From IMG/VR virus record IMGVR_UViG_2773857766_000004, positions 1 through 64,000 of that record: a DNA stretch of 64,000 bases; one strand, written 5' to 3'. A program made the translations under genes and the position numbers. Below the pieces are notes generated by a model that did no database searches, was not told the DNA's origin, and saw only the letters and a program-made list of their open reading frames with translations. Shown here one piece after another: positions 1,965-34,439 of the stretch (position 1 is its first letter; the number at the start of each line of letters is the position of its first letter). The stretch is from a virus. Lineage: Duplodnaviria; Caudoviricetes.

Positions 1965-2374
1965 CGGGGGGACTCCTTGCGGAGGCGCTCGTTGGCGCGC
2001 TGGATGGTGGCGTTGATGGCCTTGCGCTCGTGCTCGGGCACCGCAGGCGGGACGCCCGCGGCCTTGGCCGCTTTGCCGGCCGTGGCCGCAGCTGCTTGCG
2101 CGGTTTCTGCGGCCGTGGCCGCTGTGTCGGCTGCCGCGGCCAGGGTGTCCGCCGCACGCTCCTGCCGGCCGGCGATGATGTCCAGGGCTCGCTGGTGGGT
2201 GCGCTGCAGGCGGTCGATCTCCTGCAACCGGTCCTGCCGCTCGTCCACCAGCAGCACCCGCGCGCGTTCCGTGCCGATCCCGTAGCCGATCCCCGCCCCG
2301 CCGCCCACCAGGACGATCAGGATGGCCAGGGCCTTGATGGTGTCGCGCACCGTGTCCATGTCAGGTTTTCGCAT
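1961..2374 (-). CDS. Membrane-anchored coiled-coil protein in lysis cassette
   Basis: TM segment ALAILIVLVGGGAGIGYGIG followed by an Ala-rich helix. Confidence 0.7.
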   Translation of the reverse strand: MRKPDMDTVRDTIKALAILIVLVGGGAGIGYGIGTERARVLLVDERQDRLQEIDRLQRTHQRALDIIAGRQERAADTLAAAADTAATAAETAQAAAATAGKAAKAAGVPPAVPEHERKAINATIQRANERLRKESPR

Positions 2375-2744
2375 CGACTTGCTCCCGCAGTTGGGTGACC
2401 TGGGTGGTCAGTTCAGCGATTCGGGCCAGCGCCTCTTCGAGTTGCTGCTGGACGGCTGCCAGGCGCCCCTCCATCCGTCCGAGGTTCTGCAGCGCTTCGT
2501 TCCGCTCCTTCGCGAACCCATCGGCGCGCGTCTCGGCGTCGGCGGCGCGCTTGATCGCGTCTTCGAGCAGCTTCTGATAGACGCCGAGCGCGGTGATCTG
2601 GCCGGCGTCGCTGGCCCGCTGCGCTGCTGCGCCGCTCAGGTACTGGCGCAGGTACATCCCGGCTGCCGCGATGGTCCCAAGCGTGCCGCCAACGACCGTC
2701 CACCAGCCGCCGGGCAATGCATTCACTTCTGGCATCGGCATCAC
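2361..2744 (-). CDS. Putative holin-like protein (1 TM plus coiled coil)
   Basis: N-terminal TM; directly downstream of the endolysin candidate. Confidence 0.55.
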   Translation of the reverse strand: MMPMPEVNALPGGWWTVVGGTLGTIAAAGMYLRQYLSGAAAQRASDAGQITALGVYQKLLEDAIKRAADAETRADGFAKERNEALQNLGRMEGRLAAVQQQLEEALARIAELTTQVTQLREQVDAKT

Positions 2745-3157
2745 TCCAGCGCCAGACGCACGGCCTGGTCGATCAGGTCGGCGGGGTAAGGCTGCTGGCC
2801 GTTTTCGTGCTGCACGATGGCCTCGACAAGCAGCGCGAGCACGTCCGGGTGCTCGATGTTGAGCTCGTCACGGACTGCCACATCCATGGCGCGCGCCACG
2901 GCCTGGGCATACGCGCCGGTGTCGTTTTCGACGCTCGGCGCCCAGCGCCCGATGATCGACTCCACCGTGTTGAGCCCGCGCTTGCGGTAGTACGAGAGCA
3001 GCACCTTGGCCAGGGCCCGGAGGCCCCACACAGGCGCCGAGAAAACGACGAAACGGGGGTCGCCGCTCTGATCCTCTGCCATGCCTTGCCAGCGGTCGGA
3101 GGTGCGGTCGATGTTGCCCGGGTTGTTGTTGCGGATCCCGCGAGGGGTGGTGGTCAT
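2741..3157 (-). CDS. Putative endolysin, PRGIRNNNPGNI family (often annotated structural protein P5)
   Basis: RGIRNNNPGNI and IIGRWAPSVENDTGAY motifs; first gene of the lysis cassette. Confidence 0.7.
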   Translation of the reverse strand: MTTTPRGIRNNNPGNIDRTSDRWQGMAEDQSGDPRFVVFSAPVWGLRALAKVLLSYYRKRGLNTVESIIGRWAPSVENDTGAYAQAVARAMDVAVRDELNIEHPDVLALLVEAIVQHENGQQPYPADLIDQAVRLALE

Positions 3158-3174
3158 GAAGATCCTTTGAACGC

Positions 3175-31123: not shown

Positions 31124-31388
31124 TTCGCACGCCGTCTGCCACGACGAAGAACTCGACCTTCATTTCCTTGGCGAACTCCGCAGCGGCGTCTCGGAACTGC
31201 CGCTGGACGCTCTTCGACAGCCCGGGCGGAAGCTCGATGCACACCACATCACCAGGCTTGCAGACGATGTGGTCGAACGGCCGCGGCTTCAGCGCCAGCA
31301 ACCGATCAATGCGGCTGCTCTGGCGCATCAGGCCCACCACGAGCGAAACATGCGAGAGGGAGATGAGCAGGGGCCAGAGGTCAGCCAT
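31104..31388 (-). CDS. Hypothetical protein with N-terminal TM
   Basis: RBS AAGGAGG; coupled to the upstream gene. Confidence 0.55.
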   Translation of the reverse strand: MADLWPLLISLSHVSLVVGLMRQSSRIDRLLALKPRPFDHIVCKPGDVVCIELPPGLSKSVQRQFRDAAAEFAKEMKVEFFVVADGVRISGAKQ

Positions 31389-31632
31389 GGCTCGCCTCCT
31401 CCTTGGTGGGGGCGACGCTTTCCGCGGCCTCCCGGCGCTCGTAGCTGCCCATCCCGCTGAAGAGGCTGCCCCACAGCAGGTAGGCGCAACCCACGACTGC
31501 ATGGACCAAACACCAGCGCATGAACCAAACGTCGATCTTCCAAGCCAGAAAAGCCGCCAGCGCGAGAAGCTCAAGGAAGACGAACGCGATGGCGAGCTCG
31601 CCCGGTCGGTGGGTGATGTAGAGCTTGCGCAT
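31381..31632 (-). CDS. Small 2-TM membrane protein
   Basis: Directly after the cro stop; two hydrophobic segments. Confidence 0.6.
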   Translation of the reverse strand: MRKLYITHRPGELAIAFVFLELLALAAFLAWKIDVWFMRWCLVHAVVGCAYLLWGSLFSGMGSYERREAAESVAPTKEEASHG

Positions 31633-31875
31633 TTACGCCACCTCCGACTTGGTGGAAGCGGTCAGCTCGGGCCAGATCAGGTGCCAGTCGTCGGGGCGGA
31701 GGTCTCGGCGGGAGACGGCGCCCGAGGTGGCGCGCTCGATGGCGACGCAGTACGCCGCATCGGGGGTCGTGCCGCGCGCTCGCCAGTTGCTGACCGCCGA
31801 TTGCCCGACGCCGATGGCTTCCGCCAGCTTACCGACGCCGCCGATGGCGCTGATGGCCGCCTCAAGAGGGTTCAT
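31633..31875 (-). CDS. cro: Cro-like (YdaS-family) regulator
   Basis: GGVGKLAEAIGVGQSAVSNW..IERAT..DLRPD; divergent from cI. Confidence 0.88.
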   Translation of the reverse strand: MNPLEAAISAIGGVGKLAEAIGVGQSAVSNWRARGTTPDAAYCVAIERATSGAVSRRDLRPDDWHLIWPELTASTKSEVA

Positions 31876-31889
31876 GTTCGCGATTCCTT

Positions 31890-31954
31890 TCACGAACGTG
31901 ATAGTAAACCAACCACCAATGTGATGCAATCCTTTGACACCATCACGCCCGTGA
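31890..31954. promoter_or_regulatory. OR region: three TCAC-N4-GTGA operators and pR
   Basis: TCACGAACGTGA at 31890, CCACCAATGTGA at 31913, TCACGCCCGTGA at 31943; minus-strand TTGCAT-17-TACTAT (31929..31901). Confidence 0.75.
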
Positions 31955-32616
31955 AAACCATTGCAGAACGCCTGAGAGCCGCAAGAGAACGGGCTGGCCT
32001 CACCCAGCCGGCCCTGGCCCAGCGCGCGAACGTCTCCCAAGGGACGATCGGGAACATCGAATCGGGGCTGCGCAAGCGCCCCCGCGACTTACTTGCTATC
32101 GCTGCCGCGCTGCATGTGTCCCCGTTGTGGCTTGAGACCGGACAAGGCCTTATGCACGGTGACCACGATCAGGCCAACGTTTCGACCGCCCCTGCGTCGA
32201 TGAGGCCGCGCCGCTACCCGGTTATTTCTTCAGTGCAGGCGGGCGAATGGGAGGAGATCGTGGACCAGTTCTCACCCGGGGATGCGGAGGATTGGCAGGA
32301 CAGTCCTGTGGATCTCGGGCCGAACGGGTTTGTGCTGAAGCTGGAGGGCAGTTCAATGACCAACCCCGCAGGTGGTAGAGACAATTTCCCCGAGGGTATG
32401 TATGTGCACATCCACCCAGGAGTTGAAGCTCAACCTGGCGACTATGTGGTGGCGAAGCGCGAAGCGGACAACAAGGCGACCTTCAAAAAGCTGGTGCGCG
32501 TTGATGGTGAGCAGTTTCTTCACGCCATTAATCCAGCGTGGCCGAAGCCCTATATAAAGCTTGAGCCGGGCGACAGAATTATAGGGAAATTAAAGTTTGC
32601 TGGATGGAGTTTTTAA
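31951..32616 (+). CDS. cI: CI-like repressor (HTH plus S24 peptidase); start GTG 31951 or ATG 31924
   Basis: HTH LTQPALAQRANVSQGTIGNIE; QAG cleavage site; GSSM and TFKK catalytic motifs. Confidence 0.93.
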   Translation: MKTIAERLRAARERAGLTQPALAQRANVSQGTIGNIESGLRKRPRDLLAIAAALHVSPLWLETGQGLMHGDHDQANVSTAPASMRPRRYPVISSVQAGEWEEIVDQFSPGDAEDWQDSPVDLGPNGFVLKLEGSSMTNPAGGRDNFPEGMYVHIHPGVEAQPGDYVVAKREADNKATFKKLVRVDGEQFLHAINPAWPKPYIKLEPGDRIIGKLKFAGWSF

Positions 32617-32627
32617 AGGAGAGAGGG

Positions 32628-32963
32628 ATGAGAAGATATTTAGCACTGGCTGCAATGTTTATTGGTTGCACAGCCAACGCAGCACCCCTGCCAAAAATAA
32701 ATGAAGCAGAATTACGCAAGGAATTCACTTCCCTGAAAGACCCGGATAGCGCCAAGTTTCGGAATATAAAGCTTGCAAAAACGGACACGGCGGGTGCGTG
32801 GGTTATGTGTGGTGAAGTAAACGCGAAAAATTCCTATGGCGGATATGCTGGTTTTGGAAGATTTATGGGAATGCTATTCACTGAAGGGCGGAAAACCACG
32901 TACCTCGTGATGACGATCGACAACGATTCCGCAAACGTCATGTGCGAAAAGCACGGTCTGTAA
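32628..32963 (+). CDS. Exported protein, candidate superinfection exclusion factor
   Basis: Signal peptide; LKDPDSAKFRN..CGEVNAKNSYGGYAG motif; immediately downstream of cI; low GC. Confidence 0.75.
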   Translation: MRRYLALAAMFIGCTANAAPLPKINEAELRKEFTSLKDPDSAKFRNIKLAKTDTAGAWVMCGEVNAKNSYGGYAGFGRFMGMLFTEGRKTTYLVMTIDNDSANVMCEKHGL

Positions 32964-32989
32964 ATAAATGCCGCATTGGAGGATGAAAA

Positions 32990-33106
32990 TTGGCTAACGC
33001 ACCCGCACCCGCACCCCAACCACCAGTTCCGCCGCCAACCCCTCAACCGCCAATATCACCACCACCGCCCATGAAAAACGAGTGGATCAGAAAGAGCCTG
33101 AGGTAA
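32990..33106 (+). CDS. Polyproline micropeptide 1 (38 aa, MANAPAPAPQPPVPPPTPQPPISPPPPMKNEWIRKSLR)
   Basis: TTG start 7 nt after GGAGG; below the ORF-track cutoff, translated by hand. Confidence 0.5.
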   Translation: MANAPAPAPQPPVPPPTPQPPISPPPPMKNEWIRKSLR

Positions 33107-33108
33107 AA

Positions 33109-33222
33109 ATGCTCAACCCGACGACAGCAGAAGCGACTCAGTCGCCTCCACCGCCACCGCCACCGTCGCCTCCGCCTCCCATGAAGGACTTTGGGTTTCG
33201 GGATGGCTGGCCAAAAAAGTAA
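33109..33222 (+). CDS. Polyproline micropeptide 2 (37 aa, MLNPTTAEATQSPPPPPPPSPPPPMKDFGFRDGWPKK)
   Basis: ATG 2 nt after the previous stop with GAGG RBS; translated by hand. Confidence 0.55.
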   Translation: MLNPTTAEATQSPPPPPPPSPPPPMKDFGFRDGWPKK

Positions 33223-33732
33223 TCACCGTGCAAGGCAAAAAATGAGCACCACCGCAGGTACAAGGGGGGTACAAATGGTGGCAGCTCGATAGCTCATGTC
33301 CAGCGCCTCTGCTCGATCCACGCAACCCGTCGCGTACTCACGCGCACGGGTGTGCTCGAGTATTAACTCAGCTCTGCGAGTGACGGCAAGGGCGGAGTTC
33401 GAATCGTGCCCTTCCGCTATCCTATCGTCGTAATAATCAATTATGTTCCCCGCAGGGTTGCCGGGAGATAGGCGACGCGAAATTGCCCCGCTCCAGATCA
33501 GCTGGGCCGCAATTCCAAACCAGCTCATCGCGAGCGCAGCCACGGGAGCCCAAGCAACCGGCGTCACGCCGTCAACACCGATCTTTCCCAGGGCATAGGC
33601 ACCCAGCGCGCCGCCACCGCCCACAAGCACCGTCGCGAACTTGTAGGAGCGCTCATAGAAGTCGTCGTAGGTCTGACGCAGCACCGCCATCGTCGCGCCC
33701 GATCTTTTCTCAACGTACTCCAGCTCGTCCAT
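33223..33732 (-). CDS. 3-TM membrane protein (2 TM, soluble loop, C-terminal TM)
   Basis: RBS GGGAGGAG before ATG at 33732; hydrophobicity pattern. Confidence 0.75.
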   Translation of the reverse strand: MDELEYVEKRSGATMAVLRQTYDDFYERSYKFATVLVGGGGALGAYALGKIGVDGVTPVAWAPVAALAMSWFGIAAQLIWSGAISRRLSPGNPAGNIIDYYDDRIAEGHDSNSALAVTRRAELILEHTRAREYATGCVDRAEALDMSYRAATICTPLVPAVVLIFCLAR

Positions 33733-33890
33733 CGACGCTCCTCCCGAGGTTGCCTGTGCATGGCGACATGATGCCGCGTGTTGACTCGCGTCGCGACCCA
33801 GCCCACCCACCGCGGTGGGCTTTTCTACGTCCATCTCAACCATGTTCATTCCTTCGCCCGAGGGAGCGCAGAAGAAATTTTACCCAAATC

Positions 33891-33930
33891 TCACGATTGT
33901 GTTGACACGTCAATTCACGTTCGTGATAAT
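33891..33930 (+). promoter_or_regulatory. pL promoter with OL operators
   Basis: TTGACA(33902)-17bp-GATAAT(33925); TCACGATTGTGT at 33891 and TCACGTTCGTGA at 33915. Confidence 0.85.
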
Positions 33931-34439
33931 TCACCCATCGCAGCCCCAGCTGGCAAGCGATGGGCCTCCGGATCGACGGGAGCCCCAGAGGCTCCTTAAA
34001 ACAGCGAGAGGATGAACAGGTGGCCGCCTGGCCGCCCTGCCCCTGATCCCGTGCGGCAGAAGCAAAAGCACACGCAGCGCACCCCTTTTGGAACGTGCGG
34101 CGACCCACCGGCCCCGAAGCCGGAGGTGGGGAGAACACGGCACCCGATAGTGATCGGGCACGCGGCGCCAGGCCGCCGCGGGAGCCCGTGACAGGGGAAG
34201 AAGTCCGCAACCCTCTTCGGAGGGCCATCACATCGGTCCATTGTCGCGACCCAGGTCGGTGCCAGTTGCAGTGGCCCGATGTGATGGCGACGACAACAAG
34301 CGAGTCAGGCGTCCCTGCCTGTTTCGTCATCAAGAGCGGGGCGGGGGTTCCTGGCCGTGTGCGCAGCAGGTGGAAGCCCTGCCCCCATTCCATGCGCCCT
34401 CCCGTCGAGGGCGTTTCTGTTTTTCAAGGAGCAACCACC

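Follow-up and report, generated by a model that had tools for sequence, protein, structure and literature searches.

Proline-rich micropeptide genes converge on a gene for a predicted three-helix membrane protein in a candidate conflict cassette of prophages and mobile islands

Two micropeptide genes face a membrane-protein gene

In a 64,000-nucleotide stretch (positions 1 to 64,000) of the virus record IMGVR_UViG_2773857766_000004 (Caudoviricetes), a provirus record of 116 kb, we analysed a compact group of three genes downstream of the cI-type repressor gene: two tandem short open reading frames (sORFs) for proline-rich micropeptides and, facing them on the opposite strand, a gene for a predicted membrane protein. 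The whole 64,000-nucleotide stretch is called the window below. The first frame, sORF1 (32990..33106, + strand), encodes 38 amino acids, 15 of them proline; its TTG is the sole start in its stop-to-stop frame, and a Shine–Dalgarno (SD) sequence, GGAGGA, lies 8 nt upstream. The second, sORF2 (33109..33222, + strand), encodes 37 amino acids with 13 prolines, starts with an ATG 2 nt past the sORF1 stop and has GAGG upstream. The stop codon of sORF2 (33220–33222) abuts that of the membrane-protein gene (33223–33225) with zero gap. The original prediction, made from the sequence of the window, had reported two SD-led proline-rich frames missed by the gene track and a zero-gap stop contact with a convergent 169-amino-acid protein, and we found both as described. 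The convergent frame spans 33223–33849 on the − strand at full length, but homologues begin, in alignment, at the residue encoded by the ATG at 33732, which we therefore took as the start; the gene for the 169-amino-acid, predicted three-transmembrane (3TM) helical protein, our putative effector, then occupies 33223..33732 (− strand), with GGAGGAG upstream.

The two peptides are alike, each having a long proline tract followed by SPPPPMK and a short aromatic and basic tail, as the original prediction had also seen. Their proline codons are mixed, both in sORF1 (CCA 6, CCC 4, CCG 4 and CCT 1) and in sORF2 (CCG 5, CCA 4, CCT 3 and CCC 1), and hexamer repeats in the window sORFs are limited to two, with three copies each. 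Hydropathy of the peptides stays below 0 in every 11-residue segment, and neither a signal sequence nor a hydrophobic stretch is present; they gave no meaningful match to Pfam and have no Pfam or PHROG family. None of eight peptides, the two from the window and six related ones, is present in a collection of 15 billion proteins, which indicates that gene callers miss these sORFs. We considered whether sORF1 and sORF2 could be one frameshifted protein and rejected this, because other loci show separate SD sequences, gaps of 7–13 nt or a TGATG overlap.

The micropeptide genes are conserved beside the membrane-protein gene

At 14 related loci for which DNA was available (L003, L004–L008, L009–L010, L091–L095 and L105), homologues of the membrane protein are encoded, their identity ranging from 87% to about 25%. 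One further candidate, L096, was dropped as a homologue, its match (E = 4.7e-4) covering only profile positions 3–72 and lying inside a 543-amino-acid frame. One or two convergent proline-rich sORFs were found on the opposite strand at the 3′ end of the membrane-protein gene in 13 of the 14 loci; the original prediction had held that homologues without adjacent sORFs would speak against it, and on this point it stands. At these 13 loci, the sORF extends 9 to about 50 nt into the membrane-protein gene, ends directly against its stop or stays clear of it by up to 14 nt, the gaps between stops at the non-overlapping loci being 0, 0, 3, 3 and 14 nt (the last at L105, between the membrane-gene and sORF2 stops).

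We also applied an automated criterion (a convergent open reading frame (ORF) of 25–60 amino acids with at least 20% proline, its stop lying −60 to +5 nt from the stop of the gene) to the window and 13 related loci; L105 was found later and left out. This criterion was passed by 12 of these 14 loci. L008 and L094 failed it because their peptide tails are extended, whereas L091 passed despite the doubt discussed below. By contrast, only 12 of 988 control ORFs (at least 150 amino acids, from unrelated loci) passed, or 12 of the 763 in loci with a G+C content of at least 0.60.

Several features of the sORFs point to selection on the encoded peptides. Among L006–L008, the pooled pN/pS was 0.18 in the sORF frame but 2.24 and 1.52 in the other two frames, and the sORF2 tail of the window differs from that of L004 by six synonymous changes and one non-synonymous change. 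The start codon is ATG in 17 of 18 sORFs, SD-like sequences (judged by eye) lie upstream, and at L004 the end of sORF1 overlaps the beginning of sORF2 in the sequence TGATG. The aligned peptides, which are mostly net-basic, have a common core, P-x-P-x-P-(L/M/I/E/S)-(K/R)-x-(D/E), and those of several lineages also have an M-A-T-N-P N terminus in common, with conservation concentrated in the last 12–17 residues. Two sORFs are retained even at L105, in a genome of 42% G+C, so the frames are not a by-product of high G+C content. The type of peptide follows the subfamily of the membrane protein, a pattern that shared descent would produce in any case and with which co-evolution is also compatible. 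By these sequence criteria, the sORFs are real protein-coding genes under purifying selection, the protein-level selection that the original prediction had read from the mixed proline codons.

One could suppose instead that C-rich non-coding DNA, for instance a decayed proline-rich linker or a microsatellite, has left these frames open by chance. None of them is annotated, the proline tract of the sORF1 homologue at L004 (5661–5719) is a perfect hexanucleotide microsatellite of 9.8 copies encoding about 20 prolines, and at L091 the sole proline-rich frame is merely the antisense of the membrane protein's Ala/Leu/Gly-rich last helix. This explanation is nevertheless scarcely credible and is already contradicted by the comparative data: purifying selection is specific to one frame, the non-proline core and the tails are conserved across lineages including the 42% G+C genome, the automated criterion separates the loci from the control ORFs, and the frames have ATG starts and SD-like sequences.

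The L004 microsatellite suggests in-frame slippage that would alter peptide length between strains. Runs of at least three prolines occur in only 6 of the 18 peptides, those of the window, L004 and L003. Together, these two observations indicate that the length of the tract is free to vary and that strong dependence on EF-P is not a property of the family; the suggestion that the peptides sense the state of translation through polyproline and EF-P did not hold as a family trait.

An unannotated family of predicted three-helix membrane proteins

A word-indexed protein search returned eight relatives of the membrane protein, and a profile search of 1.84 billion representatives returned 92 at E ≤ 0.001, 51 at E ≤ 1e-10 and 16 at E ≤ 1e-30. 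Judged by these matches, the protein is a member of an unannotated family of 92 cluster representatives. In an alignment of 56 sequences, E8 is invariant and R28 and R119 are near-invariant. The family is rare, with 5 credible members in 401 genomes sampled from the host's family and 1 in 401 from the host's order, and it was absent from phage and plasmid collections searched by tblastn with four representatives and by DNA, collections from which records near the window may be left out.

Hydropathy analysis (Kyte–Doolittle, 19-residue window) gave peaks of 1.36 (residues 35–53), 1.48 (61–79) and 2.28 (150–168). AlphaFold2 with the 56-sequence alignment (pLDDT 97.4) placed helices at residues 3–49, 58–83, 94–106 and 111–168. 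The three hydrophobic segments agree with the original prediction, the first two being only moderately hydrophobic. The model predicts a long bundle of three helices, one half of which would lie in the membrane and the other in the cytosol, and E8, R28 and R119 would by residue number fall in the cytosolic half. Foldseek found nothing at E ≤ 0.001 in the PDB or BFVD. A holin identity was rejected: Phage_holin_3_6 matches only 2 of 56 members (best E = 0.011), and the gene lies in the immunity region, not beside an endolysin gene.

Two relatives show unusual arrangements. In P0002, from another citrulli assembly, the protein is 100% identical over 92% of its length, and its C terminus switches frame into the antisense of sORF2, which is either a real mutation or the result of assembly indels. 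P0048, of 2,054 amino acids, has 10 separate stretches that match profile positions 104–164 of the family and may consist of repeats of the cytosolic helix.

The membrane protein resembles PycTM in architecture

Because the original prediction had likened the protein to PycTM-type effectors, we compared the two. In a 2026 preprint (bioRxiv 10.64898/2026.08.12.744502), PycTM and PucTM are placed among the 3TM effectors of the 'pJV1-SpdB3 family', their cytosolic region is given as helical, and PucTM is described as a hexameric channel that acts by abortive infection. Our comparison set consisted of five bona fide PycTM genes, each adjoining a cyclase gene, and was later enlarged. PycTM model helices (23–66, 76–100, 114–119, 122–131 and 134–184) follow, as judged from their residue ranges, the same order as those of the window protein: in both, a long N-terminal helix runs into TM1, followed by TM2, a loop, short helices and a long helix into TM3. 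The proteins are also similar in size (about 170–190 amino acids) and in their defence-type genomic setting. They differ in their invariant residues, which are E8, R28 and R119 here but a P-R pair and one K in PycTM. They also differ in their partners: true PycTM loci have an adjacent cyclase gene, whereas the partner here is a convergent gene for a proline-rich micropeptide, a neighbour that none of six PycTM genes has under our automated criterion, even with looser limits.

Sequence comparison gave a weaker picture. The Pfam family PF18967 (cut-off 27.2 bits) did not match the window protein, matched none of the 56 family members at E ≤ 0.1 and gave no match at E ≤ 10 in a six-frame search of the 116-kb record. 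Among 401 genomes, the five PF18967 matches above the cut-off fell in other genomes than the five matches of this family. The named clusters closest to the protein in the ESM Atlas have a score of 0.94, and PF18967 is found on 11–15% of their members. The PADLOC PycTM models each matched 1 of 56 family members, with E values of 0.004–0.008. Alignment of profiles by hhalign gave a probability of 1.1% (E = 0.051) against 6 PycTM sequences and of 18.7% (E = 0.0013) against 26, the latter over 145 collinear columns and full-length. Reciprocal hidden Markov model (HMM) searches at E ≤ 0.01 matched 2 of 116 and 3 of 112 sequences, compared with 0 of 116 and 1 of 112 for reversed-sequence controls. 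With cross-matches at the level of the reversed controls and weak hhalign scores, sequence homology to PycTM is not established. Of the likeness that had been proposed, the order of helices stood but homology did not: the membrane protein looks like a PycTM-type effector in its model, its membership of that group is not established, and the system is not Pycsar. A relation to SLATT proteins, whose models are part of Pfam-A, had also been raised but found no support: the window protein matched no Pfam family at E ≤ 1, and the 14 families listed for the 56 members include no SLATT family.

The cyclase family PF00211 was absent from the 116-kb record, in agreement with the original prediction, and from all three of the viral records searched, and the neighbours seen at the loci are not cyclases. 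One possible explanation for a PycTM-like architecture without a cyclase partner is that the peptides are activating ligands or sensors that open the membrane protein, replacing the cyclic nucleotide of Pycsar, and that peptide rises or is released on infection. That canonical PycTM genes adjoin cyclases and are without such sORFs would fit this exchange of partners. However, the peptides would be encoded in the cI operon (see below) and should be on in the lysogen, where a pore held open by a constantly present activator would kill the cell unless some other control existed, and we regard this explanation as improbable.

Borders and contexts indicate a mobile cassette

At the DNA level, the window and L004 are homologous (74.8% over 735 nt) only within 33012–33742, from sORF1 through the start of the membrane-protein gene, which indicates that the upstream lipoprotein gene and the promoters are not part of the cassette. 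On this sequence evidence, the cassette is about 750 bp long, at about 32990–33742 of the window. We had considered the upstream lipoprotein as a third component and rejected it, as the proteins upstream at L009 and L010 are only weakly similar (BLASTP E = 0.004 and 0.79; phrog_2320 E = 0.0026 for L009). The proteins with a zinc ribbon and a TM segment at L009 and L010 have a weak motif in common with the corresponding gene product of the window (32628–32963).

The surroundings of the cassette vary. An S24 repressor gene lies directly upstream in the window, L005 and L091. L003, L009 and L010 are IMG/VR proviruses or viral contigs, with a HIRAN-TM protein encoded upstream at L003 and the Zn-ribbon-TM protein (phrog_14275) at L009 and L010. 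Elsewhere the neighbours are a PemK toxin (L004), an HNH endonuclease (L093), a serine recombinase (L095) and, at L008 (4335–6686, + strand), a protein with Mrr_cat and an nSTAND3 NTPase domain (nSTAND3 E = 2e-45), an architecture of the defence type. At L105 (features at 2178–3167, − strand, and 1489–1965, + strand), a Peptidase_C14 (caspase-domain) gene ends 2 nt before the first sORF. Occurrence both in prophage-immunity regions and in islands of the defence or mobile type is what one expects of a mobile cassette, be it a moron, a defence system or a toxin–antitoxin pair.

The presence of the cassette beside cI in three loci (the window, L005 and L091), together with the proline-rich and mostly net-basic nature of the peptides, might suggest a module for export or communication. 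The membrane protein would then be a channel or an immunity protein for the peptides, and these would be protease-resistant lysis–lysogeny signals or ribosome-targeting peptides like proline-rich antimicrobials; some of them may resemble insect proline-rich antimicrobial peptides in composition. We consider such a module quite improbable: the peptides are without a signal sequence or hydrophobic stretch, the cassette also occurs in non-phage defence and mobile contexts, no receptor or regulator gene travels with it, and the convergent layout would be left unexplained.

The window cassette lies in a swapped immunity block

In the window, the cassette is part of an immunity block. The left border of this block is a Cro-like helix-turn-helix (HTH) gene (31633..31875, − strand; Pfam YdaS_toxin 4.7e-19 and P22_Cro 1.5e-08; phrog_35, transcriptional repressor, 3.1e-23). 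Directly after it lies an 83-amino-acid hydrophobic ORF (31381–31632, − strand) without a Pfam or PHROGs family. The cI-type repressor gene (31924..32616, + strand) encodes an HTH and an S24 peptidase domain (Pfam Peptidase_S24 5.9e-18, HTH_31/HTH_3; phrog_4 5.3e-45). It is followed by an exported or lipoprotein-like moron of 111 amino acids (32628..32963, + strand; phrog_2320 8.8e-22; no Pfam match), which lies between cI and the sORFs and forms a low-G+C island (about 46%) within a prophage of 66% G+C.

Two exact palindromes, TCACG-N2-CGTGA (31890–31901 and 31943–31954; inverted repeat I1), are putative operators in the divergent cI/cro region, and a third exact operator-like copy lies at 33915–33926, overlapping a promoter-like site on the + strand. 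These three are the only exact copies in 64 kb, and all lie at the two borders of the immunity block. With one mismatch allowed there were 6 matches compared with 2.8 expected, a count that is not significant, and the argument for operators therefore rests on the location of the three exact copies. Divergent promoter-like sites, which are consensus matches only, occupy both strands at 33877..33930. The + strand site (33902–33930; 11 of 12 consensus positions) is aimed at the rightward genes, and a weaker − strand site (33905..33877) is aimed at the membrane-protein gene. The operator copies and promoter-like sites at both borders place cI, the moron, the sORFs and the membrane-protein gene in one block between two operator-bearing divergent promoter regions. 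Strand and spacing suggest that the sORFs of the cassette are co-expressed with cI.

Paracidovorax (Acidovorax) citrulli or a close relative is the most likely host of the provirus. A prophage of the P. citrulli type strain (L011) has a backbone 95% identical to that of the window, but only from 35012 rightwards; its immunity region differs, and no homologue of the membrane-protein gene was found in it. These differences indicate that the immunity block is a swapped module, and by sequence there has been mosaic exchange of the entire repressor block.

The position of the cassette recalls rexAB of phage lambda, which belongs in part to the cI operon and is flanked by cI and the second operator/promoter region. 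Its products form an exclusion system expressed in the lysogen, in which RexA controls the membrane effector RexB. The same slot is found here, with cI at 31924–32616, operator-like palindromes at 31890, 31943 and 33915 and the promoter-like site at 33902–33930, and the proposed equivalence to the rexAB locus holds in this positional sense. Unlike RexAB, the genes are convergent, the partner is a proline-rich peptide of 30–40 amino acids rather than a 279-amino-acid protein, and the cassette occurs outside prophages too; there is also no relation in sequence or family, with no Pfam match at E ≤ 1 and no PHROG for the membrane protein or the peptides.

RNA evidence and possible control by antisense transcription

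The stretch is contained in 16 RNA-labelled runs from several studies. Those examined are unstranded contigs, in which DNA carry-over is possible. In one run from one study (X8), positions 32893–33268 form a contig of their own, with adapter sequence on both sides and a depth of 1551.6 compared with 684.6 and 191 in the flanks, which hints weakly at a separate, abundant RNA that spans both sORFs. Runs X1 and X4 gave one contig across everything and were uninformative on transcripts, and run X12 covered parts only, at a depth of 2–5. This 376-nt stretch (32893–33268) is less structured than its shuffles (z = +1.56), and GC skew falls to −0.38 over 33000–33199, where the sORF strand is C-rich and G-poor. 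In the sense of the sORFs, a terminator-like GC hairpin followed by CUUUUCU (33800..33829, + strand; −15.5 kcal/mol, z = −3.76, 0 of 200 shuffles as stable) lies beyond the 5′ end of the membrane-protein gene, its function being suggested by its form. Any cI-operon transcript that continued past the sORFs would cross the entire membrane-protein gene in antisense and end at 33800–33829. Rfam has no family over 32400–34100.

On the − strand, a terminator-like hairpin (within 33230–33300; −18.6 kcal/mol, z = −2.57) followed by U6 lies in the last codons of the membrane-protein gene (33261–33246), 12–17 nt before its stop; if it terminates transcription, the mRNA of this gene would be without a stop codon. 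We dropped it as a regulatory device because, by eye, it is not conserved in L004.

The layout of the two transcription units raises the possibility that translation of the sORFs, rather than free peptide, controls antisense silencing of the membrane-protein gene, with the peptides as cis-acting leader or arrest peptides. Rho would be kept from loading by ribosomes translating the C-rich, unstructured RNA, or else the conserved C terminus would arrest the ribosome at the stop codon, with a chain of 30–40 amino acids just filling the exit tunnel; the tnaC leader peptide, for example, stalls at its stop codon beside a Rho site. When translation fails, antisense transcription would stop and the membrane-protein gene would be expressed. 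This model accommodates much of the evidence: the stops abut or overlap in every locus, so that terminators do not fit between the genes; the RNA of the sORF strand is unstructured and rich in C; the only strong terminator-like hairpin in the sORF sense lies beyond the membrane-protein gene; and conservation is concentrated in the last 12–17 peptide residues. It has no need, however, for two tandem sORFs with their own SDs or for the conserved M-A-T-N-P N terminus, and it needs an upstream promoter in every context, although contexts vary between loci. We regard it as the chief alternative, though an unlikely one.

The resemblance to known peptides of this kind, which include the regulatory arrest and leader peptides TnaC and SecM and the proline-rich ribosome-binding peptides apidaecin and oncocin, is one of composition and layout, and no sequence similarity is claimed. 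Like them, the micropeptides are short and proline-rich, with conserved C-terminal residues, about as long as the exit tunnel and encoded near a C-rich stretch. Unlike arrest and leader peptides, they have no co-directional gene downstream, and no more than 6 of 18 carry a strong polyproline stall motif.

Discussion

Our tentative reading, plausible if still short of probable, is that the cassette is a conflict module in which the membrane protein is the effector and the micropeptides are its cognate regulators, most likely labile inhibitors, with an antisense layer added. The module could be of the abortive-infection, superinfection-exclusion or toxin–antitoxin-like kind. The effector would probably be an oligomeric pore, by analogy with the architecturally similar PycTM and PucTM, and we infer that it would be toxic and serve in defence. 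The peptides would act as dedicated protein regulators of it, their core P-x-P-x-P-(L/M/I)-(K/R)-x-(D/E) binding the conserved cytosolic helical bundle (E8, R28 and R119). Encoded in the cI operon, they would be made in the lysogen, whereas the effector would be driven by its own promoter-like site beside the second operator, and the obligatory 3′–3′ overlap of the two transcription units would add antisense control or interference. When transcription or translation collapses on infection or induction, the supply of peptide would be lost and the effector freed.

Several points weigh against this reading. The window membrane protein has no Pfam (E ≤ 1), PHROG, PADLOC or NCBIfam family, and its first two TM segments are only moderately hydrophobic, below the classical threshold of 1.6. 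The comparisons with PycTM by PADLOC, hhalign and reciprocal HMM searches were marginal, and an assignment to BAR/F-BAR proteins (VIA-align, Z of about 12) was rejected, as it reflects generic long-helix bundles and falls under the stated threshold of 13 for helical folds. The sORF at L091 is doubtful, and because L006–L008 are mutually close relatives, the loci amount to about 11 independent lineages rather than 14. Protein antitoxins are normally co-operonic with their toxins, so a convergent layout is unusual, and the conservation of the peptide C termini fits a peptide acting inside the ribosome tunnel equally well.

A conflict module of this kind would stand apart from the known toxin–antitoxin systems. 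Type II systems do not describe it, the genes being convergent in all 15 loci and no toxin family being matched. Among type I systems, txpA/ratA and bsrG/SR4 have convergent transcripts that overlap at their 3′ ends, and hok/sok excludes T4. The cassette resembles them in having a gene for a membrane-acting protein whose 3′ end overlaps a convergent unit, in being a small, mobile and often prophage-borne locus and, in the logic proposed here, in relying on a labile inhibitor that is lost when transcription is shut off. However, the protein here has 169 amino acids and three predicted TM helices, compared with fewer than 60 amino acids and a single TM helix in type I toxins, and the convergent unit encodes conserved peptides under purifying selection, not a non-coding RNA. 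A search of the literature, made largely on abstracts, found no description of such a cassette. What is new here is the type of partner and the layout of the genes; membrane-effector modules borne by prophages or islands are of a known kind.

A bolder version of the proposal, which we hold to be possible but doubtful, is that the cassettes represent a new class of conflict system, in which cyclase-less, PycTM-like 3TM pores are controlled by polyproline-II micropeptides instead of a cyclic nucleotide and form a suicide switch gated by the status of translation. The peptides would then be plugs or ligands of the pore's cytosolic bundle, or arrest peptides of the exit tunnel, and together with the 3′–3′ overlap would make expression of the effector report whether the cell, or its cI operon, still transcribes and translates.

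If the conflict-module reading is true, it adds an unannotated protein family of 92 representatives and an overlooked micropeptide family to the conflict systems of prophages and islands, and it means that a PycTM-like membrane effector can pair with peptides in place of a signalling enzyme. A cassette of about 750 bp with two or three genes permits the roles of peptide and RNA to be separated genetically. It would also provide a concrete case for the idea that many partners in defence and toxin–antitoxin systems may hide among unannotated sORFs.

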